Made by a program: the position numbers and the translations under genes | Assembly (NCBI GenBank): GCA_027488375.1 | Contig: JAIYBW010000010.1 | Span: 113-64,112 of the forward strand | Direction: 5' to 3' | From: Pseudomonadota bacterium | GTDB lineage: Bacteria; Bdellovibrionota; Bacteriovoracia; Bacteriovoracales; Bacteriovoracaceae | Length of the DNA: 64,000 nt | The notes under the pieces: generated by a model | Databases searched by the model: none | The model's input: only the letters and a program-made list of their open reading frames with translations | What the model was told of the DNA's origin: nothing | Shown here: positions 1,255 through 62,323 of the stretch, piece after piece | How the letters are laid out: every line of letters starts with the position of its first letter | Position numbering within the stretch: position 1 is the first letter of the stretch

Positions 1255-1419
1255 TTAGTTTCTAAAGTGGCATTCCTCAGTCCTAAAAGTCATAGCAAGT
1301 GAAAGGCGAGATTGGAGTTTCGCCTTGTAAGGTTATCCCTTAGCATCAAATGAGATTTTAACTTTGCCATCAAACCAATTCGAATACCCCTTGACCGTCA
1401 CTCGCCGAGAATCAGGTTT
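1255..1419 (-). pseudogene. 3' remnant of a homolog of the 3147-3527 gene
   Basis: Translates KPDSRRVTVKGYSNWFDGKVKISFDAKG*PYKAKLQSRLSLAMTFRTEECHFRN*, versus PKKSQVTAKGYSNWFDCKVKLFYNKKGQPYKAKLHSRLTMAMTFSFEEC in the intact gene; in-frame TAA at 1333-1335; no 5' half. Confidence 0.9.
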
Positions 1420-2946
1420 TTATTTGAAGTAAACTTCACATATCCTTTTTTGCGTTTCCCTAGTCTGCTTCAAGATATCAATTTGTGAGTAAAAATCATC
1501 GCTTCCTGAATCACCAAAGGTATTGACATACCTTTGATAAGATTTTTGCTCATGTGCCTGAAGAGAATCATGAAATTCATCAAATGATCCAAAATTAGGG
1601 CATGAAAGATTTCTCAACTCAGTGATATTGATTTTATATTCACTAAGATTGTGCTCCTTATCAAGCCTGTCAAAAGTTGAGTTTAAAACCTTCATCTCTT
1701 TTACTAATTCTTCATAAAGTAAAGCTTTTCCAGATTCTTCTGACAGATTTCCACTATCGATTTCTAATTGTATTTTTGCCTCTCCCTGCATTTTTATCTC
1801 TGGATGAATATTCCAAAGAAGATGTTCCATGGCCTGTTTATAGCTAGTTCCCTCTGGAAAAATATAGGATTGAATTTTTTTAAGATCAAAATACGATGAT
1901 TGAATAAGTTCATCATCAATCCCTGCTCCGGAACTAATTTTACAGGCCTCATCATATCCACTTTTTTTATCCCTAACACTAATGGACATAACTTGATTAA
2001 TTTTATAACCAGCAGAGATTTCATTGAATTTTTTGATAGTCTGAACAATCGATTTGTTCACTTCATCTTGATTGGTGCCTTCACCTATCAAAAACTCTTC
2101 ATTCCCAAACGCTTGCTTTAACTCTTCACTAAGTGCGGCGGCATAGACTCTAAAAGATCCCTCTTTATGTGAAGAGAATTTAGTATTCGTATCATCACAA
2201 AAGAGTTTTGTTCTACCAATTAAATCAGGAGCAACATTTGATACTATGTCATTAAATTTTTTAATTGCTTCTTGTCTTGCATAATCATCTCCATCAATGC
2301 CTGCAACCCAAGCTGCGGCGATTGTTACTGCAAGTGAATTTTGAGCTCCTTCAATGTAGTCTTTTAAATCACTAGAAGTAAGAGCAAGTTCTTTAATCTG
2401 TTGCAAAATTTGTTCTTTGTGAGGATGAAGTTCTTTGAAGCGTTTTTTTAAATCGCTAAGTGAGCCGATGCCTTCTTCTTGAAGTCTTGATAAGAGAACT
2501 TGGCTCTGCAGAGTGGAGTCTGAATTCATCTCTTCGACTTGAACCGAGGAAGAATCATTATCGACCTCAAGTATCATGGAGCGTTTACCAAAGATCGATT
2601 TGTCTCCACCTTCGTATTCAATCGAAATCACTTTACCCTTAATTTTCGAAGATTTTATCTCGAACGAGTAACCTTGAGACTCATCTTCAACATCAAAGGT
2701 TCCTAAGCTGACTGGAGCATTAGGATCAGTAAGGTCCATAACTTCAATGGTTCCGTCTTGAGCAACAGCATTGCTTATGAAAGCATCACTTACTGAATGA
2801 ATAACACTTGCTAAGGATCCTTGAAAGCTGATAACAGTTGAGGATGTACCTGATTTAACAATTGATGAGCTTCCTCCACCTCCATTACAAGCGTAGCAGA
2901 GCTGAAAGATGATCATGAAAGAGATGAGTTGTTTCAGATTTTGCAT
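1420..2946 (-). CDS. Hypothetical lipoprotein (508 aa)
   Basis: Long ORF; hydrophobic N-terminus ending LCYAC followed by a Gly/Ser linker (lipobox-like). No family recognised. Confidence 0.75.
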   Translation of the reverse strand: MQNLKQLISFMIIFQLCYACNGGGGSSSIVKSGTSSTVISFQGSLASVIHSVSDAFISNAVAQDGTIEVMDLTDPNAPVSLGTFDVEDESQGYSFEIKSSKIKGKVISIEYEGGDKSIFGKRSMILEVDNDSSSVQVEEMNSDSTLQSQVLLSRLQEEGIGSLSDLKKRFKELHPHKEQILQQIKELALTSSDLKDYIEGAQNSLAVTIAAAWVAGIDGDDYARQEAIKKFNDIVSNVAPDLIGRTKLFCDDTNTKFSSHKEGSFRVYAAALSEELKQAFGNEEFLIGEGTNQDEVNKSIVQTIKKFNEISAGYKINQVMSISVRDKKSGYDEACKISSGAGIDDELIQSSYFDLKKIQSYIFPEGTSYKQAMEHLLWNIHPEIKMQGEAKIQLEIDSGNLSEESGKALLYEELVKEMKVLNSTFDRLDKEHNLSEYKINITELRNLSCPNFGSFDEFHDSLQAHEQKSYQRYVNTFGDSGSDDFYSQIDILKQTRETQKRICEVYFK

Positions 2947-3146
2947 AAATCAGACCTCTAGATAAGTACCATTATAATTCACATCTACGTATAAGCAGAA
3001 GCGTATCGGTCGGGTTTTAATTTTTGATTAATAATAATGAGTTGTATGAAAAAATTCTTAATATTTTTATTTAAGACTTTTGGGGAAACAGAATTATAGC
3101 CAACTTTCTGTGGCAATGAGTGTAAGTTTTTATCACCTGATTTAGT

Positions 3147-3527
3147 TTATTGATGAGCCTCAAATAAGCACTCTTCGAAGCTAAAAGTCATGGCCATGGT
3201 CAGGCGAGAGTGGAGTTTCGCCTTGTAAGGTTGCCCTTTCTTATTATAAAAAAGCTTCACCTTGCAATCAAACCAGTTGGAGTAGCCCTTGGCCGTTACT
3301 TGGGATTTTTTTGGATCTCTTAAATCTGAAATTTCCTCTTCATCAATTTCAAAATAACAAGACTGCTTAGGAGTTTCAAAACTCATATACTTTTCATCGA
3401 GGTTCAAAACAAGCTCACACTTCTTTCCATCTTTAGTAACACCCTTAAGTTCATAGTCAGGGGTCATGCAAGCCGCTGAAGTTTTAAAAGAAAATATAAA
3501 GATGACTACAGTAAGAAATGATTTCAT
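3147..3527 (-). CDS. Small secreted hypothetical protein with 6 Cys
   Basis: ORF with signal peptide MKSFLTVVIFIFSFKTSAA; conserved against the remnant at 1255-1419. Confidence 0.8.
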   Translation of the reverse strand: MKSFLTVVIFIFSFKTSAACMTPDYELKGVTKDGKKCELVLNLDEKYMSFETPKQSCYFEIDEEEISDLRDPKKSQVTAKGYSNWFDCKVKLFYNKKGQPYKAKLHSRLTMAMTFSFEECLFEAHQ

Positions 3528-10007: not shown

Positions 10008-10009
10008 AA

Positions 10010-42106: not shown

Positions 42107-42122
42107 CCCAGTTCATTTCTTA

Positions 42123-42150: not shown

Positions 42151-42198
42151 ACAGCACTGTGTTTTTTAGCGACTTCATCAAAATACATCATGACATTT

Positions 42199-43853: not shown

Positions 43854-43910
43854 AATATTTTCCCGTCAGTAGCACAGTGTTTTTTAACAATTTCTCAGCG
43901 GGCCCTAAAT

Positions 43911-45696: not shown

Positions 45697-46271
45697 GCCT
45701 AGATGTAAATAATTTCAATCTTTTTGCTAAAAAATCTTCGCCTAAGCCAACTCCGATGCCTATCGCTTCTAGCACTAAAGAAGTTATTGAGAAAGAAATT
45801 GAAAAATTCGACGCGGAAATTGTTGAAGCTCCTCTTGTACTTGCTAATAGCAACAATCAAACTATCGAAATCGCCCCAGTTGTTAAAACTGTAGAGATTG
45901 AGAGATTTGAAGATGTTCGTCCGGCCATGGTGAATGTTTCTGCCCAAATGAATAATTATAAAAATATTGAAAAGAACAAAGAAACATCGCCCCTTAGAAA
46001 ATTTGAAACATTTGCGGCCCCCACTTTCAGAATTCCTCAGGAGCATGATTTTGAGCTCAAAAGAATTGAGCAGACAATCATGAGAAATCGCAGAAAAGGT
46101 CAAAATACTGATTCTAGAGAGCGCATTACTTCAAATACTGTTGTCCGCGCCCTTATCTCAAACTTCCTTGATCGAGTAGGAGATATGGATCTATCAAATA
46201 TAGATAATGAAGAGGTATTAAAAGAGAGAATGGAGAAGGTTTTTAAGCAGAAGTATAATAAGAAAATTTAA
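45693..46271 (+). CDS. Probable centromere-binding partner of ParA (disordered N-terminus, C-terminal RHH-like domain)
   Basis: ATGA overlap with parA; TFRIPQEHDFELKRIE...ITSNTVVRALISNFL strand-helix-helix pattern; no ParB CTPase box. Confidence 0.65.
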   Translation: MSLDVNNFNLFAKKSSPKPTPMPIASSTKEVIEKEIEKFDAEIVEAPLVLANSNNQTIEIAPVVKTVEIERFEDVRPAMVNVSAQMNNYKNIEKNKETSPLRKFETFAAPTFRIPQEHDFELKRIEQTIMRNRRKGQNTDSRERITSNTVVRALISNFLDRVGDMDLSNIDNEEVLKERMEKVFKQKYNKKI

Positions 46272-47375: not shown

Positions 47376-48196
47376 TTTAAAGATGCAATCTCCTTAATAT
47401 AACTCTCTAGCTCAGACTTATTAGGTAAAAAACCTTCATTGTAATTTCCAGAAAAGAGATCAGAGGAATCCTGATAGATTGAATTGGTTAGAATGCCATG
47501 AAACTCATTCAGATCACCTGAATGAACTAATTCCAAATAAGACTGATAATTAGATAATCCATGACCCATGTTACCACTGAAAATAATACGTTTAGGGTCC
47601 TGAGAAAAAAAATCCCTGTAGGGTTTGAAAATTTTTACATCAGAAGGGGATCCTTGGATAAAATCTTGGGCACAAGGAAGCAAGATATTTTTCCATTGGC
47701 CATCATCGATGGGGTCTTCAATATAATCAATAAAGCGAATAAACTCTTGAGGTATACTAGAGAAAAAATTTCGCCATGATTCTTGAGAAAAAAGTCCATT
47801 GGCATCAAGACGCAGGATATGCTTATCTTCTAATAATTCAAGAAATCCAAAATCATCTTTGTGGCGGATCTTATATTTTATAATCTTTGCGTGAGGTGAA
47901 TCACCTTTCTGAAAGAACTGATGATTGAAAAATCGTATATTTACGCCTAAATCTATCCATTTAGCATCTAATAAATAAAGCGCCTTTTTTTGGGCAAGAG
48001 TCTTTTGTTCTTTAAATGTCTTGAGAAATTCATCTACGCTTTCATCGCCAAGCTCTGGATGTGGGAAATACTCACAGTAACCAATCCCTTTATCAGATTC
48101 AGACTTGAGAAAAACCCCTTCACGAATATGAGTCGAGCTTAAATAATTAAGTTCAACTTTCGGCCGAAGCTTAAATCGATGAAATGAAATCTTCAT
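47360..48196 (-). CDS. menC: o-succinylbenzoate synthase (short form)
   Basis: KYK, LRLDANG, YIEDP enolase-superfamily motifs; operon context. Confidence 0.78.
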   Translation of the reverse strand: MKISFHRFKLRPKVELNYLSSTHIREGVFLKSESDKGIGYCEYFPHPELGDESVDEFLKTFKEQKTLAQKKALYLLDAKWIDLGVNIRFFNHQFFQKGDSPHAKIIKYKIRHKDDFGFLELLEDKHILRLDANGLFSQESWRNFFSSIPQEFIRFIDYIEDPIDDGQWKNILLPCAQDFIQGSPSDVKIFKPYRDFFSQDPKRIIFSGNMGHGLSNYQSYLELVHSGDLNEFHGILTNSIYQDSSDLFSGNYNEGFLPNKSELESYIKEIASLNWTLL

Positions 48197-49047
48197 ACTT
48201 GTATTGAAACTAAAAATAAAACACTAAAAACCACTAAATGAATGCCTGAAAACTTTAGACCAAGATTTAATTGCTCATCCTTTGCAAAAAGTACGATCTT
48301 AGCAAGCTTTAAAGCAGGAATAAGAGCAAGGAAAGTTAGATAAATGAATCCTTCGTGTTTGAAAAAATGAAGAAGGATGTAGGGTAGAAAAATTGTAAGT
48401 AGCGTTAAGCGTATGTAATTTTTAGAACTCATTTTGGTAGCCAGAGTTAATTTGCCAACCTTCTTATCCTCATCTTTATCACGTAGATTATTTATGCAAA
48501 TAAAGGTTGTCGTTAAGCAACCATAGATAATAGCAAGAATCAAAACTTGAAGATTTAATTGCGAAGAAAAAAGATAGTAAGAACCAAGAATTGAAAATAG
48601 ACCAAAAAATAAAAAAACAAAAATTTCCCCTAAGCCTTTATAAGCAAGAGGAAGAGGGCCTCCAGTATAACCATAACTTAAATAAAGAGAAATAACGCCA
48701 AGGAGAGCATAAGGCCATCCACCCTTGAGCAGGATTGGAATAGCTGAAATCATGGCAAATAAAACAAAAAAAATCGCCCAACGAAAAGTAACCTCAGGCC
48801 GAATAAGACCCGAAGCCGTCACACGTGTTGGACCTTTTCTATTGGTATCGGCACCCTTCTTAAAATCAATCACATCGTTAAAAAAATTTGTGGCAATCTG
48901 AATACATAAAGCACTAATGAGGCAAGAAATAAAAATCAAATAAGGTCGATCAACAAAATGAACTTGAAAATAAATAAAACTCACAACTGGCGGAATTAGA
49001 CTCGCCAGAAGTGTTTTAGGTCTCATGGCCAAGATTAAATTATTCAT
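48193..49047 (-). CDS. menA: 1,4-dihydroxy-2-naphthoate prenyltransferase
   Basis: RPKTL, NDVIDFKKGAD, YTGGPLPLAYKGLGE, NNLRD..ED..VGK.TLA. Confidence 0.92.
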   Translation of the reverse strand: MNNLILAMRPKTLLASLIPPVVSFIYFQVHFVDRPYLIFISCLISALCIQIATNFFNDVIDFKKGADTNRKGPTRVTASGLIRPEVTFRWAIFFVLFAMISAIPILLKGGWPYALLGVISLYLSYGYTGGPLPLAYKGLGEIFVFLFFGLFSILGSYYLFSSQLNLQVLILAIIYGCLTTTFICINNLRDKDEDKKVGKLTLATKMSSKNYIRLTLLTIFLPYILLHFFKHEGFIYLTFLALIPALKLAKIVLFAKDEQLNLGLKFSGIHLVVFSVLFLVSIQV

Positions 49048-49694
49048 AGATTGATCTCACTATTAATTATTTCTTGAATATACTTTTTCTTTAAATGAAC
49101 ACGATGATCAGACTGAATACCAATGGTTTTAATACCGCGAAGGGCAAGATTCCATGCAATCTCAGCATATTTTTTATCTTGATAACCAAAAACATAAAGA
49201 ATTTTCTCTCTATTATTATTCATTTCTTCAAAATAATTTGGCTGCTGTGAAAGACGATGATTTTCAAAAAGGGTGATTGATTTTTTAAATAAAGCCTTGT
49301 CAATTGGTCGATAGTCTTGGGATTGATTAAAAAGTGGTAGTGAATTCCAGTAAGTGAAAAAGTCATCGAGAGAACTTGTTCGCAGTCTCAAGATAATCTC
49401 CTCCTCCCAAAGCATTCTATCCTCAATTTCGCTGGATTCCAGTCCTGGATGTGAACTCAAAAGAATCACTTTTTTTACATCAAAATTATTGTTTACAGCT
49501 ACTCTTAAAGCAACTCGACCACCTAATGAATAACCGACCAGAATATCATTTGGGCCTATTTTCAGTTGATTTATATCTTCAACGGTTAAATCATAAAGAT
49601 TATAAATTCTTGTCGAATGTTCATCGAATTTGTAATTATTCCACATAGTAGGATGGTCGAATTGACCGTGAAAAAAATGAATCATGAGTCCCAT
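49044..49694 (-). CDS. menH: SHCHC synthase (alpha/beta hydrolase)
   Basis: HGQF, GYSLGGRVAL, SSHPGL, DKKY; operon context. Confidence 0.82.
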   Translation of the reverse strand: MGLMIHFFHGQFDHPTMWNNYKFDEHSTRIYNLYDLTVEDINQLKIGPNDILVGYSLGGRVALRVAVNNNFDVKKVILLSSHPGLESSEIEDRMLWEEEIILRLRTSSLDDFFTYWNSLPLFNQSQDYRPIDKALFKKSITLFENHRLSQQPNYFEEMNNNREKILYVFGYQDKKYAEIAWNLALRGIKTIGIQSDHRVHLKKKYIQEIINSEINL

Positions 49695-51097
49695 TCCTTA
49701 AGAAATGCTAATGTTGCATCTGGATTTGTCTCGATTTCTAAAATATTAACTTCAAAGAGTTTTGAAAAATCATTCTTCACATAAGATTTCCCAAAGGCCG
49801 CAGCAATGTTGCTAAAATTATTCTCGTGTTCAAGAACCAGTTTACTATCTAGTTTCATCGTTTCAAAAATTCTTCCCCCAAAATTATTAATAATAATGAG
49901 TTTTAAATTATGGGGGATATCTTTCATCGCTGATAAATCATAATGAGTCGTTAAATCACCAAGAATGCAGTAAACGGTTTTCTCAGTACTCACAGCGATG
50001 CCAATAGCTGTCGATAGCTGACCATCAATACCATTCACACCGCGGTTACCAAAAAATTGATACTTCTTCTTATTCACAAGTTCAAAAAATCTAATAATGA
50101 GTGAGTTACCTAAGTAAACAAGACTATTCTCTGGTATGTATTCCTCAAGCCTAGAAAGCACAGCGGGATCAGATTTAGGGTATTTGGAGATCAATTGAAT
50201 TAAAAATGATTCATGAGTTTGATCAATTTTTAATTCTTGGGATTTCTTCAGAATAGTCCAAAACGCATCCATTTTGATTAATTGATTTGAATTTATGGGC
50301 ATAACTGAGCCATGAGACAGTCCAGTAAAACCTCGTTCATCAAAACTAAATTGGGGGTAAGGGTATTCTTCTAAGTTGCGCCATAATTTTGAAAGGGGTG
50401 TATGACCTATCCTAATCACACTTGTTATTTTTTTATCACTTAATGCCTTTAAAATATCTCTTTCAAAACGAAAAGTTGATTCATGGTGGACACCAGAAAG
50501 AATTTCCCCGTAAAAAGGAATTCCTAAATCCTTTAATGAACGTCCCAATAGGTCCATACATGTGTTTTCATGACTTAGAAGAATGAGTGGTGAGGGATTT
50601 TCTAGAATAAATTTATCAAATCCCGTCCAATCTGATGTGTATTCCTTCGGACTAAAAAGAGGCTTCTCATTTTTCTTTTCAATCAAGACATTTATATGAG
50701 CTGGATAATCAATAAGAGAAATATCAAGCTGATTCAAATCTTCTAAATTTAATTCAATAAAAGAGCCCCTGACTCCTCTTGTGACAATTTCATGGTCGAT
50801 GGTTTGAGGTGAGGCCTTGCCATGCATCTTTTTTGGTCTATCCCCAGTAATAAGTAAAAAGGGGAGATTACTGTAAAAGGCTTCAGTCATAGCGGACAAG
50901 CACTCAGTCACAGCAGTCCCTGATGTAGTACAAATTGCAATTGGAGAGCCTAATATTTTTGTTTTTCCAAGGGCCTTAAATGATCCAGATCGCTCATCAA
51001 CTTCATAACTTATTTTATTGTGATTAAAGAAATTAAGGAGATCATTATTCCTAGCTCCTGTGCAGAAATAAACATGGTCCAAATCAAAAAGCTTCAT
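49682..51097 (-). CDS. menD: SEPHCHC synthase (ThDP-dependent), short form
   Basis: VDERSGSF.ALG, CTTSGTA, TGDRP, NRGVNGIDG, GDL..HYD, INNFGG.IF. Confidence 0.9.
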   Translation of the reverse strand: MKLFDLDHVYFCTGARNNDLLNFFNHNKISYEVDERSGSFKALGKTKILGSPIAICTTSGTAVTECLSAMTEAFYSNLPFLLITGDRPKKMHGKASPQTIDHEIVTRGVRGSFIELNLEDLNQLDISLIDYPAHINVLIEKKNEKPLFSPKEYTSDWTGFDKFILENPSPLILLSHENTCMDLLGRSLKDLGIPFYGEILSGVHHESTFRFERDILKALSDKKITSVIRIGHTPLSKLWRNLEEYPYPQFSFDERGFTGLSHGSVMPINSNQLIKMDAFWTILKKSQELKIDQTHESFLIQLISKYPKSDPAVLSRLEEYIPENSLVYLGNSLIIRFFELVNKKKYQFFGNRGVNGIDGQLSTAIGIAVSTEKTVYCILGDLTTHYDLSAMKDIPHNLKLIIINNFGGRIFETMKLDSKLVLEHENNFSNIAAAFGKSYVKNDFSKLFEVNILEIETNPDATLAFLKEWDS

Positions 51098-52164
51098 AAG
51101 AATAATTCTTTTACTGTTTCACGCTTTAATTTAATTTCATTCAACTCAGATGATGCATTCGACTCTTTAATGACTCCTGCACCAGATTCGATGATGAGCT
51201 CATCATCTTTTAATTGAATATTTCTAATCATCACAAGAGCACGATTGTTTTTGAAATGATTAACGCCAAAGACTGATCCAAAAAATCTGTTCGGAAATTT
51301 TTTTGAATAATGAGATTTTTCTAAAAAATTCTTGGCCATTGTTTTTGGCTGTCCACCAAGAGCTGCAGTTGGGGAAAGAGTATCCACTAAATCAAATAAT
51401 CTGTAATGATCCTTTAAAACGCCCTTTATGTCGGTTCTTAGATGGATCATTTTTGAGTAGGGTGTAATATAAGTTTCACCTGTATCAATCTTTGTGCAAA
51501 AGGGTTCGAGACTTTGATTTATATTCTCAATGACGAGATCATGTTCAATTTTATCTTTGAGTGATGTTCGCAATATCTCTTCATCACCTTTTTTTGCCGT
51601 ACCTGCGAGAGCAACTGTATGAATATTATTCGCTTTTATATCAAAAAGAATCTCTGGCGTTGAGCCCATAATGGAAAACTTTTGATTCCAAAGACCGTAG
51701 GGTAGTCCAACTTTAGAGGTTACTGTTTTGTAGAATAAACGCTTTTTAAAATTAATTGGGTTATCGACTTGTATCTTTTCTGAAGATATCAGAACAGCTT
51801 TTTTAAAATCATGATCTAATTCTTTTTGAAGGTCCTGAAAATCCTTTAAAAATAAGTCATCATAGTTTTCTTTTATTTCATATTTAAGGGTCAGATTATT
51901 GTAATCTGCTAGCGCCAATTCAACCTTCTGTTTGTCAATCTCAAGTATATCTTCAGGATAATAATAGTAATATTGAGGGCGGTAGAATTCTTTAATATAA
52001 AAGAACACATTTTTTTCAGGAATTTTCTTTTCACTAAAATAACCGCCTTTACCCAACAGAAGGGTTTGATTGTCATTGATTAACGTAAAAGCACCTTGCT
52101 TAAAAAAGCTTTCATCGATCCAATTATCTAAATGATCAATCGATTCATTCATTAATAAACCCAT
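51094..52164 (-). CDS. menF: Isochorismate synthase / chorismate-binding enzyme
   Basis: KAVL, GSTPE, ALAGT, KDKIEH, HLRT, PTAALGG, GAGV...S....E..E. Confidence 0.85.
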   Translation of the reverse strand: MGLLMNESIDHLDNWIDESFFKQGAFTLINDNQTLLLGKGGYFSEKKIPEKNVFFYIKEFYRPQYYYYYPEDILEIDKQKVELALADYNNLTLKYEIKENYDDLFLKDFQDLQKELDHDFKKAVLISSEKIQVDNPINFKKRLFYKTVTSKVGLPYGLWNQKFSIMGSTPEILFDIKANNIHTVALAGTAKKGDEEILRTSLKDKIEHDLVIENINQSLEPFCTKIDTGETYITPYSKMIHLRTDIKGVLKDHYRLFDLVDTLSPTAALGGQPKTMAKNFLEKSHYSKKFPNRFFGSVFGVNHFKNNRALVMIRNIQLKDDELIIESGAGVIKESNASSELNEIKLKRETVKELFL

Positions 52165-53033
52165 GGAAATTTTTGAAATTCAGCCTCTCTTTTCTCTAAA
52201 AAAGCATTCTTCCCTTCGCGGGCCTCTTCAGTGCCATAGGCGAGTCTAGTGGCCTCACCTGCAAAAACTTGTTGTCCCACAAGACCATCATCAACAAGAT
52301 TAAAGCTAAATTTGAGCATCTTCATGGCTGTCGGTGATTTTGAACAAATAATCTTTGCCCAATTGAGCGCCTCTTCTTCAAGGAGATCATGGGGAACTAC
52401 TTTATTGACCATACCCATTTCGAAGGCTTCTTGAGCAGAGTAAGCCTGTCCGAGAAAGAAAATTTCACGAGCACGTTTTTGACCAATTTGTCGAGCTAGG
52501 TAAGCCGAGCCATAGCCACCATCGAAACTCGCAACATCAGGATCTGTTTGACGAAAGAGGGCATGTTCTTTTGAGGCGATAGTAAGATCACATATAGCAT
52601 GGAGAGAATGCCCACCACCCACGGCCCATCCAGGTACAACCGCGATGACAATCTTAGGCATAAACCTGATCATTCTTTGAACTTCTAGTATATGCAGTCT
52701 TCCGTGCCTGTAATCATTTTTGTCCTTGTAATCATAGCCGGTACTTCCTCTCACATTCTGATCTCCACCGGCACTAAAAGAGTAAATTCCATCTTTTGAA
52801 GACGGACCATTTCCAGTTAAAAGAATGGCGCCGACATCATTTTGACGATGGGCCCACTCGAAAGCGATTAATAATTCATCCACAGTCAGTGGTCTGAATG
52901 CGTTTCTTAGATCAGGTCTATTGAAAGCAATTCTTACAGCACCAGTATTACGGGCACGGTGAAGAGTGATATCTTCAAAATTAAAATTTTCAACTTCATT
53001 CCATTCATTTTTATTAAACGTTGGGGATATCAT
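52152..53033 (-). CDS. menB: 1,4-dihydroxy-2-naphthoyl-CoA synthase
   Basis: Crotonase fold; AGGDQ, LHILEVQR, GGGHSLH, SFDGGYG, QVFAGEAT.LAYGT.EA.EG. Confidence 0.95.
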   Translation of the reverse strand: MISPTFNKNEWNEVENFNFEDITLHRARNTGAVRIAFNRPDLRNAFRPLTVDELLIAFEWAHRQNDVGAILLTGNGPSSKDGIYSFSAGGDQNVRGSTGYDYKDKNDYRHGRLHILEVQRMIRFMPKIVIAVVPGWAVGGGHSLHAICDLTIASKEHALFRQTDPDVASFDGGYGSAYLARQIGQKRAREIFFLGQAYSAQEAFEMGMVNKVVPHDLLEEEALNWAKIICSKSPTAMKMLKFSFNLVDDGLVGQQVFAGEATRLAYGTEEAREGKNAFLEKREAEFQKFPWVY

Positions 53034-53713
53034 ATTAACCTCTTTGCTTCATAGATATAGGCAATCCCTCCAAAAAGAGGGTGATATTTAATTTCAGTAA
53101 AACTAGTATGTTTCTTTAGAAGGGAGCAAAATTTCTCCCCACTCGGGAATTTTTCTGACGAACTAATGAGGTAGTCATAAGCATCAGACCTCTTCGTCAG
53201 CAATGAGAACACAGGAAAGTAGGCTTTAAGGGATGAAAAATAGATTTTCTTCCAAAGATTATTTTCAGGAGTCCCAAATTCTAGAATAAAGAGATTTTTA
53301 GAAACTCGTGATAACTCTTGAAGGGATTTTTCCAAATTTTCGACATTTCTAATCCCAAAAGATATAGTCGCAACATCGAATTCTTCTTCTTTAAAAGGAA
53401 GATTTGAAACATCTTGAACCTGAAAATCAATACAGGATCCTTTCTTGAGCTTGCGTTCATTAGCAGCTTTAATCATAAGAGGCGAGAAATCAATCGCCGT
53501 GATTTTTTGGATACTTCTCTCCTCAAAGCCAAAAGCAATATCTCCAGTACCAGTAGCACAATCAAGTACTGACCGGGTCTCAGATTTAAGAGCTGAATTA
53601 ATCAGCTTCTTTTTCCAAAGACGATGAGTTCCAGCGGAAAGTAAATCATTTAGTAAGTCATATCTTGAAGATATGTCGTCGAACATAGACTTTATATATT
53701 GTGCATTAGGCAT
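53030..53713 (-). CDS. menG: Demethylmenaquinone methyltransferase (MenG/UbiE)
   Basis: MFDDISSRYDLLND, LDCATGTGD, ISFGIRNV, YDYL..S...FP. Confidence 0.9.
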   Translation of the reverse strand: MPNAQYIKSMFDDISSRYDLLNDLLSAGTHRLWKKKLINSALKSETRSVLDCATGTGDIAFGFEERSIQKITAIDFSPLMIKAANERKLKKGSCIDFQVQDVSNLPFKEEEFDVATISFGIRNVENLEKSLQELSRVSKNLFILEFGTPENNLWKKIYFSSLKAYFPVFSLLTKRSDAYDYLISSSEKFPSGEKFCSLLKKHTSFTEIKYHPLFGGIAYIYEAKRLI

Positions 53714-53714
53714 T

Positions 53715-54476
53715 TTATACTCTCAGTTTCTTTTCGAAAATTGGACAGGCCCGACCTAGTTTATGAATAAGCTCTTGATACATCTTTAAATCAAGCGCCT
53801 GTTCCGGATCAGAAAGAGCTTGATTTGGTTGTGGATGGACTTCAACTAAAATTCCGTCGGCGCCAGAGGCAAGGGCCGCCAGAGACGCTTGCACAACATA
53901 CTTTGAGTCACCCATGGCATGAGAAGGATCGACAAAAACTTTGAAAGGGTGATTTTTTTTCAAATACATCACAGCACCTAGATCTAGGGTATTTCTAAGT
54001 TTAGTTTCAAAAGTACGAATACCTCTCTCACAAAGATAAATGTTTTCCTCTCCAAGGTCTGAAAGATAATCAGTTGCCCCTAACCATTCATTAATTGTGG
54101 CGCTAAAACCTCTTTTAAGGAGAACTGGCTTATTGAGTCTTGAGAGCTCCTTCAATAGCTCATAGTTGTACATGTTTCTTGCACCAACTTGAAAACAATC
54201 AATCACAGGCAGAAGTGAATCAATTTGTCTTGGGTCTGTGATTTCAGTGATAAATTTAAAGGGTCTTGTTTTTTTTAAGTTTTTTATGATTTCAATTCCC
54301 TCAGGCCCAAGGCCCTGAAAGCTAGATTTTTTAGTTCGCATTTTATAAATACCCCCTCTAATTAATGAAGGGGTCACTTCAGAATTCAAGACGCTTTGAA
54401 GTTGTGAATGACTTTCAATTGCACATGGCCCAGATATAACTAAAAATTCAGGACTGTCTTTATTGAATAAGTTCAT
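53715..54476 (-). CDS. aroF: DAHP synthase, type I-beta, no regulatory domain
   Basis: GPCAIES, K.RT...SFQGLG, QVGARNM, PVLLKRG, CERGIRTFE, DPSH, EVHP. Confidence 0.88.
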   Translation of the reverse strand: MNLFNKDSPEFLVISGPCAIESHSQLQSVLNSEVTPSLIRGGIYKMRTKKSSFQGLGPEGIEIIKNLKKTRPFKFITEITDPRQIDSLLPVIDCFQVGARNMYNYELLKELSRLNKPVLLKRGFSATINEWLGATDYLSDLGEENIYLCERGIRTFETKLRNTLDLGAVMYLKKNHPFKVFVDPSHAMGDSKYVVQASLAALASGADGILVEVHPQPNQALSDPEQALDLKMYQELIHKLGRACPIFEKKLRV

Positions 54477-55405
54477 TTAGTCCTCTCTTTAATTTGATCA
54501 ATGAAATTAAAAACTTCTTGAGTAATCTCAAGGATGTTCTCAGTATTAGAAGACATAGTAATTTCTGCAAAAAGAACTTTGGCCTCATTCAGGATAAAAT
54601 CAACTTCTTCTTTCGTATCGTTTTGCGCCTCTTCTATTTGTTGAGAAGACCAGGGTCCATCAGAGAACTGACTTCCTCTCATTTGATGAACAACATAATA
54701 GAGTTCCGGATATCTCTTCAGGAGATTTAGAGTGGTAAAATTAATTAATCCATCTTGCAGGTCTTTGTGCTTATCTTTTCCTGAGACACTGGAGAAATCT
54801 AAATTATCGTCAATCATTTGAAAGGCAACTCCAATTTTTTCACCAAAGAGGTGACATTTTTTGACTATATTTTCTTGGGCTCCTGCGACCTGGGCAACCG
54901 ACGAGCAACACCAAGCAAGTAAGGCCCCTGTTTTTTTCCGAGACACTTCAATGAGCTCTTCTTTTGAATTAGTCCCTTTTATTTTGAGTTGATCCTGAAG
55001 AAATTCACCCTCCACAATATCCTCTAGAGCTTCCGAGATTGTTCTAAGAATTTCGTATTCACCGGCACTGACTAATTCACTGATGACCCTAGCAAGAAGG
55101 AAATCTCCGGCAAGCACTGCTCTTGAATTTGTAGTTTTCTTGTGAAGTGTTAGTTCACCTCGTCGGGTATCGGCTTCATCAACGACATCATCATGAATTA
55201 AAGAAGCCGTATGAATAAGTTCAGCAGATCTTGCAATCAAGTATTGTTTTTCTTTTTCGAGATTAAAAATGAGTCCGAAAATTTCGATTATTTTTGGTCT
55301 CATCATTTTTCCACTATGTGAAAGATGAGAGTTAATGACTTCTTGAACTCTATAAGCGTTGCCCCTTCCTGAGAGCTTTAGGAATGATAAATCAGCATTT
55401 GTCAT
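54473..55405 (-). CDS. Polyprenyl diphosphate synthase
   Basis: GKMMRP, HTASLIHDDVVD..DTRRG, AGDFL, KTGAL, FQMIDD motifs; first gene of the operon. Confidence 0.9.
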   Translation of the reverse strand: MTNADLSFLKLSGRGNAYRVQEVINSHLSHSGKMMRPKIIEIFGLIFNLEKEKQYLIARSAELIHTASLIHDDVVDEADTRRGELTLHKKTTNSRAVLAGDFLLARVISELVSAGEYEILRTISEALEDIVEGEFLQDQLKIKGTNSKEELIEVSRKKTGALLAWCCSSVAQVAGAQENIVKKCHLFGEKIGVAFQMIDDNLDFSSVSGKDKHKDLQDGLINFTTLNLLKRYPELYYVVHQMRGSQFSDGPWSSQQIEEAQNDTKEEVDFILNEAKVLFAEITMSSNTENILEITQEVFNFIDQIKERTK

Positions 55406-56220: not shown

Positions 56221-57726
56221 ATGGAAAATTTTGAAATTAATACTCTGAGTTCAAGTTCTACCTTCAATGCATTAAAGGCGCAGCATAACCTTGCTGAGTT
56301 AAATGCTACAGATACAGCCCCCGTTGTTGTCTCTAACCCCAATGACATAGTGAACTTCAAGTCTGAGTTCAATATCGGTCTCGCACTTCCTTTTGAGTTT
56401 TGCAAAAATAAAAAACAAGACAAATTTGAGAAGCACTCAATGACCAAGTGGTTTGATGAGAACAGTAATCTTCATCGCCTAGAGGTCGTCTTTCGTGGAA
56501 ACTCTGGTGCCGCGGGGAAATTAGACCAGGACGTTTTAAACATCCTCATGTCGATGTGTGTGGAGCAGAAGACTGACTCACCTGTCTTCACCTACGAAGA
56601 GATTAGAAAGCGCCTGGGCCTTTCTAAGGGCTCTCACGGCAACATTCGAGACTCCATCCAGCGTATGCTTGGAATGACCATAGAATTCAAAAAATCCTTC
56701 TATTCTACTTCAGGCTCTAAAAATGTGGATGTTGAAAAGCATCTTATTCAGTCAAGAAAATCTGTTGTCAACGAAGACTACGCTGACCTTAAAAACCTTG
56801 ATGCCCGCCATAGTGTGACCTTTGATAAGGACATTATGCAAAATCTCCTAGGTGGATATTATTCAGTTCTTTCTCGTGAAACTTACCTAAGCCTAGATAG
56901 TGGGGCCGTGAGACGCCTTTATCAGTTAATCGTCTCCCATCGAGATGTTGGTAAAAGAAACGTCTTCACTTTAGAGATTGAAGACATTGCTTCCGTATTA
57001 GGACTTACAAACAAAAAAGAGTTCTTCGGAAACATTAAAAAATACTTCGAGTCCCTTAAAACAGCACTTCCGGATCTAGACTACGTATTTGCAACAGTTG
57101 AAAGAAAGAAAGTTGTTAAGATCTCTTTCCCTGAAACTCATCTCCTTGCTCAAGGTGATCAGTTCCTTGATTCACTTGTAAAGTGGTATGGAGAAGATGT
57201 TTTAGTTACAAATGAAATCTCTCCTGACTTTTTATCTGATCTTCGAGCGAAATATCCAACTAAAGTAGAATTTGAAAAAACAAAAGTTTATCTCTGCGAA
57301 CTCTTAGTAGATATGGTTTTATTCCAAAAGATCACAAACCGAGGCCAAATTAAGTCAGTACGAGCGATTATCTTCGCCTCACTTAATAAGCAAATGGAAT
57401 ACACAAAGCCTGAGGGCTATAAGAGATTTGTAACTGAGAGAGTAAAGCTGAAAGATATTATTGAAACTAAAGAGCTTGCCCTCAAAGAAGTTGAGAGAAA
57501 GAAATTTGAGGTTCAAGTCACAGAGAAGAAAACTCGTGAGCTTGCTGCACTCACTTTTCTGACTGTAAAAAAAGAGCCAAGAGTTTATGCAAAATATGAG
57601 AAAGAAGCCTATAAGCTTTATGGCGAGGAAATTAGAACATCGCTCTTAGGAGAGCAGATTTTAGAAGAGCGTATTAAAGAATTAATTCAGGCCAGAATGG
57701 AAGCTGGCGAACAGATAATGTCATAA
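56221..57726 (+). CDS. Plasmid-type replication initiator (winged-helix RepA/TrfA-like)
   Basis: SEFNI..LPF, DQDVL, FTYEEIRKRLG.S, FDKDIMQNL.GGYY, AVRRLYQL pattern; flanked by iterons and dnaB. Confidence 0.75.
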   Translation: MENFEINTLSSSSTFNALKAQHNLAELNATDTAPVVVSNPNDIVNFKSEFNIGLALPFEFCKNKKQDKFEKHSMTKWFDENSNLHRLEVVFRGNSGAAGKLDQDVLNILMSMCVEQKTDSPVFTYEEIRKRLGLSKGSHGNIRDSIQRMLGMTIEFKKSFYSTSGSKNVDVEKHLIQSRKSVVNEDYADLKNLDARHSVTFDKDIMQNLLGGYYSVLSRETYLSLDSGAVRRLYQLIVSHRDVGKRNVFTLEIEDIASVLGLTNKKEFFGNIKKYFESLKTALPDLDYVFATVERKKVVKISFPETHLLAQGDQFLDSLVKWYGEDVLVTNEISPDFLSDLRAKYPTKVEFEKTKVYLCELLVDMVLFQKITNRGQIKSVRAIIFASLNKQMEYTKPEGYKRFVTERVKLKDIIETKELALKEVERKKFEVQVTEKKTRELAALTFLTVKKEPRVYAKYEKEAYKLYGEEIRTSLLGEQILEERIKELIQARMEAGEQIMS

Positions 57727-57733
57727 GGTGAGC

Positions 57734-59068
57734 ATGGAAGCATTAAACAACAATACAAATGAACTTCTTATCGCTGAAAGAGCATTTTTATCAACGGTCA
57801 TTTCTGACCCCGACTCAATGGGAGAAATCGACTCACTAAAGATAGACGCCGATGACTTCATTGAATTCAGAAATCGCCTTGTTTATCAGCACTTCATAAA
57901 GTTAAAAAATTCAGGAATTAACCCAGACTACATTACACTTGCCGAGAGCTTAAACTCGGCCGGCGAGCTTGAAAAAGTAGGAGGACAATCCTTCCTCGTA
58001 AGTATATTTGATGAGTACGCAAGCTCTGCAAACCTAAAGAGCTATGCCGATCTGATTAAAAGAAAGTCTGTTTTTCGTGATGTCGTTCAAAAAGCAAAAG
58101 AGATTCAATCCATCGCAATCAATGGTGAAGTCACTCAAGATGAGCTTCTTGGGAAAATCAATAAGATCCTAATTGATCTAAATGATAATTCAACCAATGG
58201 TAATTCACTTGATTTAAAAGACTCCATCCTTCAAGTGATTCAGGATTTAAGAGATAAAGACTCCATTAAATCAAAGCTCACGAAGACGGGATTTGATTCA
58301 ATTGATGATAAGATTGTTGGGATTTCCCCAGGACAATTAATTGTTCTAGCTGCTCGACCATCGATGGGTAAAACCGCCCTTGCTTTAAATATCGGTCAAA
58401 AAATTGCTGAAAACTATAATGAGCATGTTGTTGTTTTCTCACTTGAAATGCTTCATGGTGAGCTTACTCAGCGCTTGATTTCCATGGAAGCCTTAGTTAA
58501 TTCTCAAAAATTTAAGTCCCGTGAGTTTAATGCTGAGGACTTAAAGAGAATTGCAAGCGCCTCTGAAAAGCTGTCTAAGCTTCCCATGATTATTGATGAC
58601 TATTCATCAACTTCTCTAGCAAGGATTCGCACTCAGTGCCTACGCTATAAGGCCAAACATGGAAAGCTTCGTGCCGTAGTTGTGGATTATCTACAGCTCA
58701 TGACCATGGAAGAGACTAAAAAAGGCAATAAGGCCGATGATATTGGTGTTATCACAAGAGGTCTTAAGCTTCTTGCTAAAGAGCTTGAATGCCCCGTAAT
58801 CCTTCTTTCTCAGCTTAATCGTGGGGTAGAAGGAAGAGATAATAAGCGTCCAATGCTTCAGGATTTGCGCTCTTCTGGGGATATTGAGCAAGATGCCGAC
58901 ATGGTATGGTTTATTTACCGTGATGAGGTTTATAACGCTGATACGGTCAATAGAGCAGAAGCTGAAATCATTATCGCAAAAAACCGCGGGGGAGAAATAG
59001 GAACAGCGAAACTTGCCTGGAGGGGTGAGTTTACAAAGTTTATATCTCGGGCTGAGGATATTTTTTAA
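57734..59068 (+). CDS. dnaB: Replicative DNA helicase
   Basis: AARPSMGKT, FSLEM, VVDYLQLM, LSQLNR.VE.R..KRP...DLR.SG.IEQDAD. Confidence 0.95.
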   Translation: MEALNNNTNELLIAERAFLSTVISDPDSMGEIDSLKIDADDFIEFRNRLVYQHFIKLKNSGINPDYITLAESLNSAGELEKVGGQSFLVSIFDEYASSANLKSYADLIKRKSVFRDVVQKAKEIQSIAINGEVTQDELLGKINKILIDLNDNSTNGNSLDLKDSILQVIQDLRDKDSIKSKLTKTGFDSIDDKIVGISPGQLIVLAARPSMGKTALALNIGQKIAENYNEHVVVFSLEMLHGELTQRLISMEALVNSQKFKSREFNAEDLKRIASASEKLSKLPMIIDDYSSTSLARIRTQCLRYKAKHGKLRAVVVDYLQLMTMEETKKGNKADDIGVITRGLKLLAKELECPVILLSQLNRGVEGRDNKRPMLQDLRSSGDIEQDADMVWFIYRDEVYNADTVNRAEAEIIIAKNRGGEIGTAKLAWRGEFTKFISRAEDIF

Positions 59069-59102: not shown

Positions 59103-59705
59103 ATGAAATTTTTATTACTTAGTTTTTTGATGTTGGTATCTGCTCATTCTATGGCTTACTCACCAAGAGTGTTTGGATTAATTAATACTTCAATGAGTTT
59201 TATTGATCATGGATCTTTGGATAACGGGAATGATATTCGTTATGAGGCAGATATGGATGGTGCTGGTTATGGAATAGGAGCTGAATACAAAGTTTATTCT
59301 ACAGCATCGGGAATAAGTTTTAATCCAGGATTCATTTATGAACTTGAAAGAGATACAGATCAAGTAACGACAGTAGCCCCATCTTCAGCTAATTCAAGCC
59401 AAAGTTCGACCCCTAAAATTCAAATGACGACTGTTTATGGGAATGGTCATATTCCTGTATCTGATAAAATTTCATTAGTCGCTGGTATCACTTACCATAT
59501 TCCTGAAGTAGATGCTTCCGGAGCTTTTAAAGGCTACGACATTAAATCAGGAATTGGTTATCAATATGGAGTTGATTTTAAACTTCAGGAATCATTTTTC
59601 GTCCAAATGATGAATAGACGTATTGTATTAGATTCAGAAGATGATTCATATGATGGTAAAGCCGATTTATCTAACTTTTCTTTAATAATTGGTAAGCAGT
59701 TTTAA
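59103..59705 (+). CDS. Small outer-membrane beta-barrel protein
   Basis: AAGGAG RBS, signal peptide, amphipathic strands, terminal Phe (IIGKQF). Confidence 0.75.
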   Translation: MKFLLLSFLMLVSAHSMAYSPRVFGLINTSMSFIDHGSLDNGNDIRYEADMDGAGYGIGAEYKVYSTASGISFNPGFIYELERDTDQVTTVAPSSANSSQSSTPKIQMTTVYGNGHIPVSDKISLVAGITYHIPEVDASGAFKGYDIKSGIGYQYGVDFKLQESFFVQMMNRRIVLDSEDDSYDGKADLSNFSLIIGKQF

Positions 59706-59778: not shown

Positions 59779-62079
59779 TTAATTCAAATCCGTAAACTTC
59801 TCATCTTTAATCGTGAAGCTTCTTTTTATTCCTCTCTCTATGAGTTTAATCTTTTTCTCGCTTAATTGGTTCTGGTCTAGTGGTAAATTTTTATGCCGTG
59901 GATACTCGGTTTTGATTCGAAAACTTTCAATCATATAAATACCATCCTCAGGATTCTTTTTAAAAGGAACGATAAAGCGTAGATACTTTGTACCTCCTTC
60001 ATCAAGAACAAAACCTGAATTGACTCCATCCTCATTTACAACATCAAGAATTGACTTACCTGTCGGACTCCTGATGGTTGTCATGATATAATACTTGCCT
60101 GCATTAGCATTTGTGAGGGGTATGGAGATTTCAATATTCTGAGTACCTCCCTCTTTATTTTCTTTTGCTACTGCTTTTAATTTCATTTGATTAACTTCGA
60201 GATCAATCAGATCAAAATAATCCTTACCCGTGTTAATACTAGATTCAAGATGAGGTGTATTTACTGGAATGGTTATATTCTCTTGATCCTCAGCAGTCTT
60301 TTCAGTTGCCTTACGGTTAATAGTAAGAGAAGCAAGCTTTACGATTGAGCTTGGATATTGTTTGTGAAAATAATTGTGAATCACGACCTGGTCACCAATT
60401 CTCTCCGTGGCAAGGCATGGAAAACTTCGAGAAAGAGTACATACGTGTACAGTTTTTCCTTCTAATGTGGGAAATTCCCAGTTCAGATGAACTGATTTAA
60501 AGTTTTCTTCATATGGAATCGGTAGAGTAACTTTCAGCCCGGGATATCCATCGATAGGAGGTAGTGGATCAATTCTTATTTTTGCAACATCAATATCTTG
60601 CTTGCTAGGATCTTCAAGAGACATAAAACCATCAATAAATACTTCAGGTATCCCTGTCGACTCATAATACTGAGTATTACCCGCCATATCAGATAGGGGA
60701 AGTGTACCTAAGCGGTAATTTCCTGGTGCAAGTTTCTTTGGGTCTGAAATGATACTTGCAATGAGTCCAAAGGATCCATCAGGTCTTTTCTGTGGAGTAG
60801 TTTGAATAAAGATTTTGTAATTTTTATTTTGTGTATGAGTGAGAGTAATGAGAGCTGGGGCAATCCCTGACAGATCATCTTGCGCTTTATTAACTTCAAA
60901 GTAGATGTCTGATATTTTTGATTGATCATTCCTAGCTTTTACATCTAATCGATAACTTGAGATAAAGTCTTTTTCAAGCCACGGAGGTTTTGTATCTGGC
61001 GTTGGAGAATCAATTTTTATTTTTGCATTTTCTGCTACGGTCGTGAAGTAGCTGACATCTGTGAAGGCATGCTTTTCCAGGAATTCATTTTTCTTGGGAG
61101 CAGAGGATCTTAGTCTCTCGGGATGATGAATATATCCCGAGAAATGTTCTGCAAAATCTTCCTCGGGAGACTTCATTGAATATTCAGAAATAAATCCAGA
61201 ACTTCCTGACGCTAATTTTTCCCATCTCCCATTATTCTTTGACCAAGAGATAGAAGAAAATTTATCCTGGAATTGCTCTGATTGTCCGTACCAAAAAGCA
61301 TGACCCATCTCGTGCAATATAGTACCTTCACCATAAACATCTTTCTCTTGATCCATTAAAGCGGCATCGCTAAAGATTATTTTTTCTTCATTAACGAAGT
61401 ATATGGCAGAGGCATCAGGCTCAGGAAGAGGGGCCCCATAGCGCCAGCGGGTTAGTTTTTTTATTTTCATCTTTTTAAAAATTTCTTGAGGAATGTCCAT
61501 CAATTGCTTTATCAGAGTGACGAGCTCCTCCGTTCTAAATTCTTGCTCATCATCATAATTTTTTTCTCCTGGTGAACTTCTCAATTCCCAGCCTGTCCTT
61601 TTTTTAAGCGTGGTCGCCAAGGATTCCTTAGTCGCTACATTCCGGAGAAACTGTTCTATTACTGTGTTTGTATAACTGATGGTAAATGTTTTATCTCCCC
61701 GTGAACCTGGAGCACAAACTTCCTGTTCAATTTTTTCAAGTTCAATTCCTAAAAGAAGATCAGGAGCATTTTTTGAAAAATAGATGTGATGAGAAGTACT
61801 TAGCTTGAGGGACCATACTTTCTTGGGACCCACATAATCCGTGAAATGAATTATAAAGGGGCCAGGTATGTTAAAGTCTTCAATGAGTCTAATGATCGTT
61901 TGAAGGAGTGCGGGATGTGGAGTCCTTCCTTCAATTTTTAAAATTGCCTTAGAGAACTCATTTTTAGATAACGCCTGAGTGTCACAAAACTCTTTCCTTG
62001 TCATTTCAAGGGCGAAGGCTGAGGAAAGGTTAATGAGAAGTGACCATATTAAAATAAACATCATGATCATATTCGACAT
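59779..62079 (-). CDS. Secreted zinc metallopeptidase-like protein with C-terminal beta-sandwich domains
   Basis: Signal peptide; ILHEMGH followed by SEYSMKSPEEDFAE third-ligand motif. Confidence 0.75.
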   Translation of the reverse strand: MSNMIMMFILIWSLLINLSSAFALEMTRKEFCDTQALSKNEFSKAILKIEGRTPHPALLQTIIRLIEDFNIPGPFIIHFTDYVGPKKVWSLKLSTSHHIYFSKNAPDLLLGIELEKIEQEVCAPGSRGDKTFTISYTNTVIEQFLRNVATKESLATTLKKRTGWELRSSPGEKNYDDEQEFRTEELVTLIKQLMDIPQEIFKKMKIKKLTRWRYGAPLPEPDASAIYFVNEEKIIFSDAALMDQEKDVYGEGTILHEMGHAFWYGQSEQFQDKFSSISWSKNNGRWEKLASGSSGFISEYSMKSPEEDFAEHFSGYIHHPERLRSSAPKKNEFLEKHAFTDVSYFTTVAENAKIKIDSPTPDTKPPWLEKDFISSYRLDVKARNDQSKISDIYFEVNKAQDDLSGIAPALITLTHTQNKNYKIFIQTTPQKRPDGSFGLIASIISDPKKLAPGNYRLGTLPLSDMAGNTQYYESTGIPEVFIDGFMSLEDPSKQDIDVAKIRIDPLPPIDGYPGLKVTLPIPYEENFKSVHLNWEFPTLEGKTVHVCTLSRSFPCLATERIGDQVVIHNYFHKQYPSSIVKLASLTINRKATEKTAEDQENITIPVNTPHLESSINTGKDYFDLIDLEVNQMKLKAVAKENKEGGTQNIEISIPLTNANAGKYYIMTTIRSPTGKSILDVVNEDGVNSGFVLDEGGTKYLRFIVPFKKNPEDGIYMIESFRIKTEYPRHKNLPLDQNQLSEKKIKLIERGIKRSFTIKDEKFTDLN

Positions 62080-62128
62080 TATTGGTTATAATTTTTAATT
62101 GATGAGGTATTTTAACTTTTAGACTTTT

Positions 62129-62323
62129 TGTGGGGAAATTGAGAAAGATCCCAACATGGTATAGTTTATCTATCGTGATGAGGTCTATAACGCCGATAAG
62201 GCCAGTAAAGCAGACGCTGAAATCATTATTGCCAAAAAATGCGTCGGGGAAATAGGAACTGCGAAACTCACCTGGAAAGGTGAGTTTACGAAGTTCGATG
62301 CGAGATCAGAGGTTGTTTTTAAA
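62129..62323 (+). pseudogene. 3' remnant of a dnaB homolog
   Basis: CGEIEKDPNMV*FIYRDEVYNADKASKADAEIIIAKKCVGEIGTAKLTWKGEFTKF..., colinear with 58874-59068 (195 bp each); TAG at 62162-62164. Confidence 0.93.

Follow-up and report, generated by a model that had tools for sequence, protein, structure and literature searches.

The 64,000-nucleotide window analysed here covers positions 113-64112 of contig C9 (64,568 bp), one of 11 contigs in a 3.2-Mb, 91%-complete genome from a predatory member of the Bacteriovoracaceae. The two ends of C9 share an exact terminal overlap of 119 bp, from which C9 is a circular plasmid of ~64,449 bp (~64.4 kb). Three of its genes, encoding a secreted protein of 126 amino acids (sec), a tyrosine recombinase, and the plasmid's own DnaB, are each followed by cargo genes and then by a decayed copy of their own 3′ end. 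These three remnants are probably scars of gene-end replacement, produced by recombination between diverged sister plasmids. A sequence-only reading of the window had proposed that cargo is brought in from sister replicons by replacement of 3′ ends, and this core idea holds, as the recombinase is chimeric, relatives free of cargo exist, and the arrangement recurs in related plasmids.

Gene ends duplicated around cargo

All open reading frames (ORFs) of at least 80 aa were used as self-tblastn queries against the window, and exactly three extra partial copies were found, the same three that the sequence-only reading had reported. Residues 89-140 of the stop-to-stop sec frame (3147-3527, minus strand) match 1261-1416 on the minus strand with 63% aa identity (E 2e-18). 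The recombinase (42199-43170, minus strand) matches 40261-40732, also minus, through residues 184-341 in two frames (74-80% aa identity, E 1e-67), and residues 386-449 of DnaB (57728-59068, plus strand) match 62129-62320 on the plus strand (67% aa identity, E 4e-22). Each remnant lies downstream of its own intact gene and on the same strand, with inserts of 1.7 kb at sec, 1.5 kb at the recombinase, and 3.1 kb at dnaB. The rest of the 3.2-Mb genome contains no further copies of the three genes' ends.

All three remnants bear stop codons and/or frameshifts. The sec remnant (1255-1419, minus strand) has two stops and begins immediately after the stop codon of the adjoining cargo gene. The recombinase remnant (40254-40732, minus strand) begins just past the catalytic Arg motif, is interrupted by frameshifts, and has TAA in place of the catalytic Tyr codon. 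The dnaB remnant (62128-62323, plus strand) comprises the last 64 codons, in which one TGG has become TAG and the terminal stop has been lost. In all three pairs, the nucleotide match of remnant to intact gene runs up to the stop codon and breaks off there or a few bases away. Each insert is thus flanked by a direct duplication of a gene end, where one copy is complete and the other is truncated at its 5′ side. Uninterrupted identity between intact gene and remnant now extends over 22, 15, and 14 nt at most, and none of these runs lies at a boundary. No identical core was found at the remnant boundaries, and no shared motif or att core at the three junctions, in agreement with the sequence-only reading.

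The substitutions separating each remnant from its intact gene indicate a long period of divergence under selection. By the Nei-Gojobori method, the ratio of non-synonymous to synonymous divergence (dN/dS) is 0.22 for sec and 0.24 for dnaB, with dS of the same order in these two pairs (0.68 and 1.1). The recombinase pair has a dN of 0.10 and a saturated dS, and 77 of its 109 differences fall at third codon positions. The recombinase dN equals that between working sister alleles (0.095-0.15). Over the same codons, intact sister alleles give dN/dS of 0.03-0.13; the remnant values lie above this baseline and far below 1, so divergence mostly predates truncation, with some neutral decay added later. 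The pattern indicates that, before it was truncated, each remnant was a working allele separating from the intact copy under purifying selection, which is what the sequence-only reading had concluded for the recombinase and dnaB from their many synonymous differences. Self-tblastn also finds that the cargo itself is not duplicated; together with dN/dS well below 1, this excludes a tandem duplication followed by decay. The GC content of the cargo (0.35-0.36) is close to that of the plasmid (0.367), so its donors were compositionally alike.

At the recombinase locus, trees were built for the parts of the protein on each side of the remnant start, using 28 plasmid-type recombinase alleles that are 55-88% identical. 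The N-terminal part of the intact recombinase (PF00589 and PF02899) falls in a clade with alleles P0031-P0033 (support 99/97), and in the C-terminal tree it is the remnant that falls in this same clade (support 94/94), while the present C-terminal part of the intact protein lies outside it. In the first 50 residues, identity to P0031-P0033 is 90-94% for the remnant and 82-88% for the intact C-terminal part. It follows that the remnant was the resident gene's own end, and that the intact gene now carries a resident-type 5′ half and a foreign 3′ half. The gene is thus chimeric near the remnant start, the outcome that the sequence-only reading had put forward as a test.

A cargo-free counterpart of this locus exists in G012:C42, which is collinear with window positions 30989-43856. 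There the recombinase is followed directly by a gene for a P-type ATPase, identified by Pfam and located in the window at 37487-40156 on the minus strand. The window's only additions are the insert at 40733-42198 and the duplicated gene end, and the remnant is contiguous with the ATPase stretch that is syntenic with G012:C42. Within this insert lie a 106-aa ORF with a signal peptide (40955-41275, plus strand) and a gene for a pilin-like secreted protein of 165 aa without a Pfam family (41589-42086, plus strand). The P-type ATPase of the window shares 62% aa identity with its G012 counterpart (L030 3372-6146), against 72-89% for the neighbouring genes, a hint that another allele of the shared backbone may have been replaced.

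The pilin-like gene lies between two direct repeats of 36 nt, one at 41437-41472 and the other at 42115-42150 (both plus strand), the latter 48 nt past the recombinase stop. Their arms are identical, show no clear dyad, and surround four central bases that differ. Only these two copies occur in the genome, where none would be expected by chance, and the repeat is absent from the other junctions and from sister loci; it was rejected as a general insertion site for these reasons. A site-specific step may have added the pilin-like gene as a single-gene cassette, which would not explain the remnant. The claim that the inserts carry no integrase stands: Pfam detects no integrase, transposase, nuclease, or recombinase domain in any cargo ORF, and a homing endonuclease or integrase within the cargo was discarded on this basis, but this one sub-unit may have arrived by a site-specific route.

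The recombinase is invariably preceded by a partner gene, here encoding 227 aa (43170-43853, minus strand). In the window (42199-43853) and at loci L033-L035, L153, and L154, the partner has 200-230 aa and no Pfam family. The pair is 74-88% identical among plasmids, and versions of 53-59% identity are found in many congeners, complete genomes among them, where they lie on large contigs of the chromosome.

The dnaB and sec loci and their relatives

The intact dnaB (57728-59068, plus strand; PF03796 and PF00772) is 44% identical to the chromosomal dnaB on contig C8 and 83-95% identical to its sister-plasmid alleles. Its cargo consists of a 200-aa outer-membrane beta-barrel protein (OMP) with a signal peptide (59103-59705, plus strand; PF13505) and a secreted Zn-metallopeptidase of 766 aa (59779-62079, minus strand; PF15890). 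The dnaB remnant follows, and beyond it lies a gene on the minus strand that runs across the contig junction, with its C-terminal part at 62324-64000 and its N-terminal part at 1-475. A 934-aa homologue in G082:C8 matches window ORF 2-475 at its N-terminus and 62324-64000 at its C-terminus. The 119-bp overlap, the reconstruction of the ORF, and this homologue together establish that the apparent ORFs of 554 and 158 aa are a single gene for a secreted protein of 866 aa. The protein is Cys-rich and belongs to a family found in 31 of 51 congeneric genomes, where identity is 30-40%.

The dnaB-remnant junction was recovered a second time in L144, a JGI contig assembled independently, in which the same order is kept at 87-93% identity: first the stop codon of the 866-aa gene, then the dnaB remnant, then the beginning of the peptidase gene. 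The L144 remnant has an additional internal deletion of 107 nt. Misassembly, which the sequence-only reading had named as a possible refutation, is therefore unlikely, and the comparison indicates that the junction is real and old. L144 joins the peptidase to the remnant and the 866-aa gene, and not to the OMP gene or to an intact dnaB. In L147, the peptidase lies near dnaB and no remnant is present.

The two cargo genes at dnaB have different distributions. The OMP gene is missing 3′ of dnaB in every sister plasmid examined. No close homologue of the peptidase was found in the 51 congeneric genomes, and a large protein database returned two: one 92% identical, adjoining the same dnaB remnant in L144, and one 72% identical, near dnaB in L147. 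Homology to both contigs stops exactly at the peptidase stop codon (59779). Neither L144 nor L147 is the exact donor, and no plasmid with the exact cargo beside the foreign-type gene end was recovered.

The sec gene (3147-3527, minus strand) has homologues of 55-77% identity in five congeneric genomes. The cargo between it and its remnant is a gene for a lipoprotein of 508 aa (1420-2946, minus strand) with a lipobox-type N-terminus and no Pfam family. In G082:C8, the sec homologue is directly upstream of the 934-aa gene, and the 508-aa gene is absent between them. Cargo-free alleles, which the sequence-only reading had expected in relatives, accordingly exist for the recombinase and for sec, but not for dnaB, since no relative among those examined has dnaB directly followed by a convergent 866-like gene. 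The description of the cargo as secreted or envelope proteins is borne out at all three loci, where every cargo protein has a signal-peptide or lipoprotein N-terminus.

Once the plasmid is closed to a circle, the 866-aa gene and the remnants of dnaB and sec on either side of it make up a single 3.7-kb block without interruption (62128-64449/1-1419). The dnaB and sec events could therefore be one, and the architecture that had been described as seen three times need not represent three independent occurrences. The two remnants may represent two end replacements into a resident order of dnaB followed by a convergent 866-aa gene and sec, or one inserted fragment centred on the 866-aa gene; neither L144 nor L147 decides between these histories.

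Comparable scars occur in sister plasmids. L149, whose DnaB is 95% identical to that of the window, and L152 (86%) have in common a second dnaB-end remnant, which has a boundary of its own and lacks the same 2 nt in both. In L152 (11333-11545), dnaB is followed by a 140-nt spacer and the remnant. In L149 (2903-4014), dnaB is followed by a copy of the spacer, a short remnant, a gene for 225 aa, the spacer again, and the shared remnant; the short remnant resembles the intact dnaB end of L152 plus its downstream 19 nt. This layering suggests repeated rounds of replacement or unequal crossover between repeats. A third dnaB remnant is found in G035:C26. The independent remnants start at different distances from the stop (about 196 nt, about 90 nt, and at least 340 nt). 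The dnaB end has been struck at least three independent times in this plasmid family.

Recombinase genes are affected as well. G021:C8 contains a lone recombinase remnant. In G017:C23 (26240-26877 and 41895-42532; L139, L017), a different tyrosine recombinase is followed by 15 kb of cargo and then by an open 3′ copy of 638 nt, which is 100% identical to the gene for 556 nt and 84% identical over the last 82 nt to the stop. It is either a recent event of the same type or the product of gene conversion between repeats. By eye, the 15 kb comprise metabolic genes resembling EgtB/EgtD, ATP-grasp, and DUF692 genes.

In all pairs of sister plasmids compared, homology breaks off precisely at the stop codon of dnaB, and this includes L017 and L045, whose upstream sequences are 92-94% identical. 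The next gene begins 0-35 nt after dnaB in each plasmid. Surviving joints must spare both genes, so such exact boundaries are what selection would leave.

A whole-genome scan found one comparable case in the other 3.15 Mb. It is located in a polysaccharide locus of the chromosome (C11:130517-133128; L137 6517-9128), where a gene for an NAD-dependent epimerase is followed by one GT2 glycosyltransferase gene and a 524-nt remnant of the epimerase 3′ end. The remnant is 83% identical at the nucleotide level, has one stop, and gives dN/dS of 0.09, with a longest identical run of 44 nt. One case in 3.15 Mb against three on the plasmid amounts to a roughly 100-fold enrichment per base. The same scan returned a pair of cytochrome c genes on C8, which was set aside as an intact tandem paralogue and hence no remnant.

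The plasmid backbone includes ParA with a ParB-like partner (44818-46271), a RepA-like replication initiator (56221-57726, plus strand; weak PF10134 match), DnaB, and the tyrosine recombinase. RepA has 84-92% aa identity across sister plasmids, and its gene is invariably immediately 5′ of dnaB. A set of menaquinone-pathway genes (46284-55405; polyprenyl synthase, DAHP synthase, UbiE-like, MenB, MenF, MenD, and others) adjoins the replication module. This set is also kept in sister plasmids L147 and L151 and is therefore part of the plasmid-family backbone. A PLSDB search with RepA found no relative, and the replicon type, RepA-DnaB-ParAB of ~64 kb with a menaquinone operon, is unmatched in that database. 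When metagenomes were scanned with DnaB, most matches were chromosomal dnaB and a single one was a plasmid relative. The relatives are labelled as Bacteriovoracaceae or Bacteriovorax metagenome-assembled genomes, and one congeneric genome is named Peredibacter.

Possible routes to a replaced gene end

In gene-end replacement, the incoming DNA would carry the 3′ part of a backbone gene together with the donor's downstream cargo. One side would be joined in register by homology, leaving the resident gene intact but chimeric. The far end, which would have no homologous partner, would be closed by an illegitimate joint inside the resident gene, and the resident's native 3′ end would be pushed downstream to decay. 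Such a product could arise by a Campbell-type single crossover with a non-replicating circle bearing the 3′ part of the gene and the cargo. It could also arise if the final conserved gene were broken and mended by one-ended homologous repair, where a sister plasmid with different downstream DNA would serve as template and end-joining would close the far side. Formation of a cointegrate followed by deletion would give the same product.

The sequence-only reading had mentioned Campbell integration and preferred homology-facilitated illegitimate recombination (HFIR), since the junctions share no motif. This preference is not supported. Campbell integration is homologous and needs no motif, so the lack of one is no argument against it, and experimental work ties duplications to single crossovers of circular molecules and HFIR to deletions (PMC3240628). 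Read together with that work, the duplicated gene end flanking each insert favours a Campbell-type crossover or an equivalent one-ended repair. Three features fit the repair route in particular. The homologous switch in the recombinase lies near the illegitimate joint, at the conserved motif of the catalytic Arg, identical runs as short as those seen today are better accommodated by one-ended repair than by a crossover inside the duplicated segment, and the route would explain the bias towards 3′ ends.

The restriction of remnants to 3′ ends may have two reasons. The affected genes are the last conserved genes before a variable region, and a promoter-bearing 5′ fragment of the DnaB or recombinase gene would probably be harmful. 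Under one-ended repair, an end that copies into non-homologous downstream DNA could not be finished by homology, while the opposite end would lead to ordinary gene conversion. For all these routes, what we infer is how the steps followed one another, whether the intermediate was a circle or a broken end, and why the bias is towards 3′ ends.

Several observations weigh against replacement by these routes. The identical runs are short for a RecA-dependent crossover inside the duplication; the homologous joint may lie just upstream of the duplicated segment or rest on short homology. The recombinase switch and the illegitimate joint are apparently within a few tens of bases of each other, which a simple Campbell model does not predict. 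Mapping of this crossover at the nucleotide level is blurred by synonymous saturation, and only the protein trees are informative. At dnaB, identity matrices reveal no discordance over the 64 codons, and the segments are short (64 codons for dnaB and 55 for sec), so that the chimera test there is not decisive. The exact donor, with the cargo beside the foreign-type gene end, was not recovered. Neither Ku (PF02735) nor an ATP-dependent DNA ligase domain (PF01068) was detected in the 91%-complete genome. Canonical non-homologous end joining therefore seems absent, lacking both Ku and a LigD-type ligase, and was rejected as the joiner; any end-joining would be of an alternative, microhomology type.

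A broader and more doubtful proposition is that the plasmids capture genes without an integrase at habitual sites. At the last gene of each conserved module, most clearly dnaB and also the recombinase, breaks or crossovers would be repaired from co-resident, diverged sister plasmids, and the donor's gene end would be copied in along with the surface-protein genes downstream of it. If true, this would account for the stacked old gene ends of L149 and L152, and it would provide a general and directional renewal of envelope and secreted genes on the plasmids of predatory bacteria.

A different history of the dnaB and sec loci begins with a variable region that already contained the OMP, peptidase, and 508-aa genes, into which one 3.7-kb piece of a sister plasmid (dnaB 3′ end, 866-aa gene, sec 3′ end) entered through two illegitimate joints. 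This history is unlikely; under it, the 866-aa gene would be the true cargo and both remnants hitch-hiking stubs. The block is contiguous and bounded by two truncated genes, and in the presumed source, dnaB and sec would both face the 866-aa gene, so any fragment centred on it would carry two 3′ ends. The dS values of the two remnants are of the same order, and in L144 the 866-aa gene occurs together with the remnant and the peptidase, but with neither the OMP gene nor an intact dnaB. However, two illegitimate joints and the right orientation (1 in 2) would be required, and no relative examined has dnaB directly convergent on an 866-like gene. Nor does this history apply to the recombinase, where the chimera test speaks for end replacement. 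L147, with the peptidase near dnaB and no remnant, is compatible with either model. Local tandem duplication with neutral decay, or an artefact of assembly, might be suggested by copies that lie close together in direct orientation, and it is hardly credible. Besides the low dN/dS, the dominance of third-position differences, and the unduplicated cargo, the remnant and the intact 3′ half fall into separate clades of alleles. The joints between remnant and cargo are non-homologous, so an assembler could not have made them without spanning reads, and the independent JGI contig has the same junction.

HFIR of linear DNA taken up by transformation is a further candidate, since its described products (PMC3240628) resemble the combination seen here of one homologous and one illegitimate joint, no motif, and small inserts of 1.5-3 kb. 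This origin is quite improbable, because HFIR generally deletes recipient DNA of about the size of the insert and does not duplicate the anchor, while all cases here are duplications. Among 60 experimental products in which part of the homologous locus was duplicated, 56 were traced to a single crossover with a circular molecule (PMC3240628). It is similarly improbable that the inserts are small elements bearing a replacement gene end that entered gene 3′ ends by site-specific integration, whether through a tyrosine recombinase acting in trans, such as the plasmid's own, or through an integrase since lost. The layout is like that of icd, the e14 prophage, and icdC (PMC13626634), two affected genes in the family are themselves tyrosine recombinases, and the one-gene unit beside the recombinase has its 36-nt repeats with identical arms and a 4-nt variable centre. 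Yet the inserts contain no integrase, the junctions have neither a motif nor an identical core, and independent dnaB remnants begin at different positions. The 36-nt site itself occurs only at that unit. Gene-end replacement between sister plasmids is the reading retained in what follows.

Relation to known systems

The plasmid would be a natural example of accessory-gene gain without the enzyme of a mobile element, needing only homology to a backbone gene and one illegitimate joint. Its scars can be dated through their divergence under purifying selection and the stops, frameshifts, and sister-lineage deletion that followed, and phylogeny allows the native gene end to be assigned to the 5′ half from which it came. 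Plasmids of Bacteriovoracaceae-type bacteria have been little studied, and this replicon has no match in PLSDB.

In its layout, the nearest natural parallel is icd/e14/icdC, and in process the nearest would be single-crossover insertion-duplication. In Escherichia coli K-12, the e14 prophage (and phage 21) inserts in the 3′ end of icd and carries a replacement end, and the native end is displaced as the pseudogene icdC (PMC13626634, citing Hill et al., Campbell et al.). As here, an intact gene with a foreign 3′ end is followed by the insert and a fragment of the native 3′ end, and the differences between the two ends are mostly synonymous. In contrast, the e14 prophage is 15 kb long, encodes its own integrase, and has a defined att core, whereas the inserts described here measure 1.5-3 kb and have no recombinase, core, or fixed position.

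In E. coli conjugation, lacZ has undergone Campbell-type insertion-duplication by a single crossover with a non-replicating circle (PMC3240628). The insert is flanked by a direct duplication in both systems (109-950 bp there and 165-480 bp here), one copy completes the gene while the other is truncated, and neither an integrase nor a motif is needed. The two differ in that natural alleles diverged by 17-28% would have recombined here, in place of identical laboratory constructs, and the circle is a supposition in the present case. The homologous switch in the recombinase also lies very near the illegitimate joint. HFIR, known from de Vries and Wackernagel and from Prudhomme et al. (as summarised in PMC3240628), similarly brings foreign DNA beside a conserved gene through one homologous anchor and one illegitimate joint. 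Its typical products in E. coli combine an insertion with a deletion of recipient DNA (PMC3240628), whereas the plasmid has a duplicated anchor end.

The C11 epimerase case lies in a polysaccharide locus, the plasmid scars adjoin maintenance genes (dnaB, the recombinase), and there are three such scars in 64 kb. O-antigen and capsule loci and lambdoid phages are known for variable cassettes between conserved genes, for mosaic joints at gene ends, and for occasional partial gene copies left as scars. The remnants of this plasmid are thus scars of a known kind that is unusually dense here, and they call for no new mechanism. What distinguishes them is their density on one plasmid, the repeated strikes at the dnaB end, and the positive chimera test of the recombinase.

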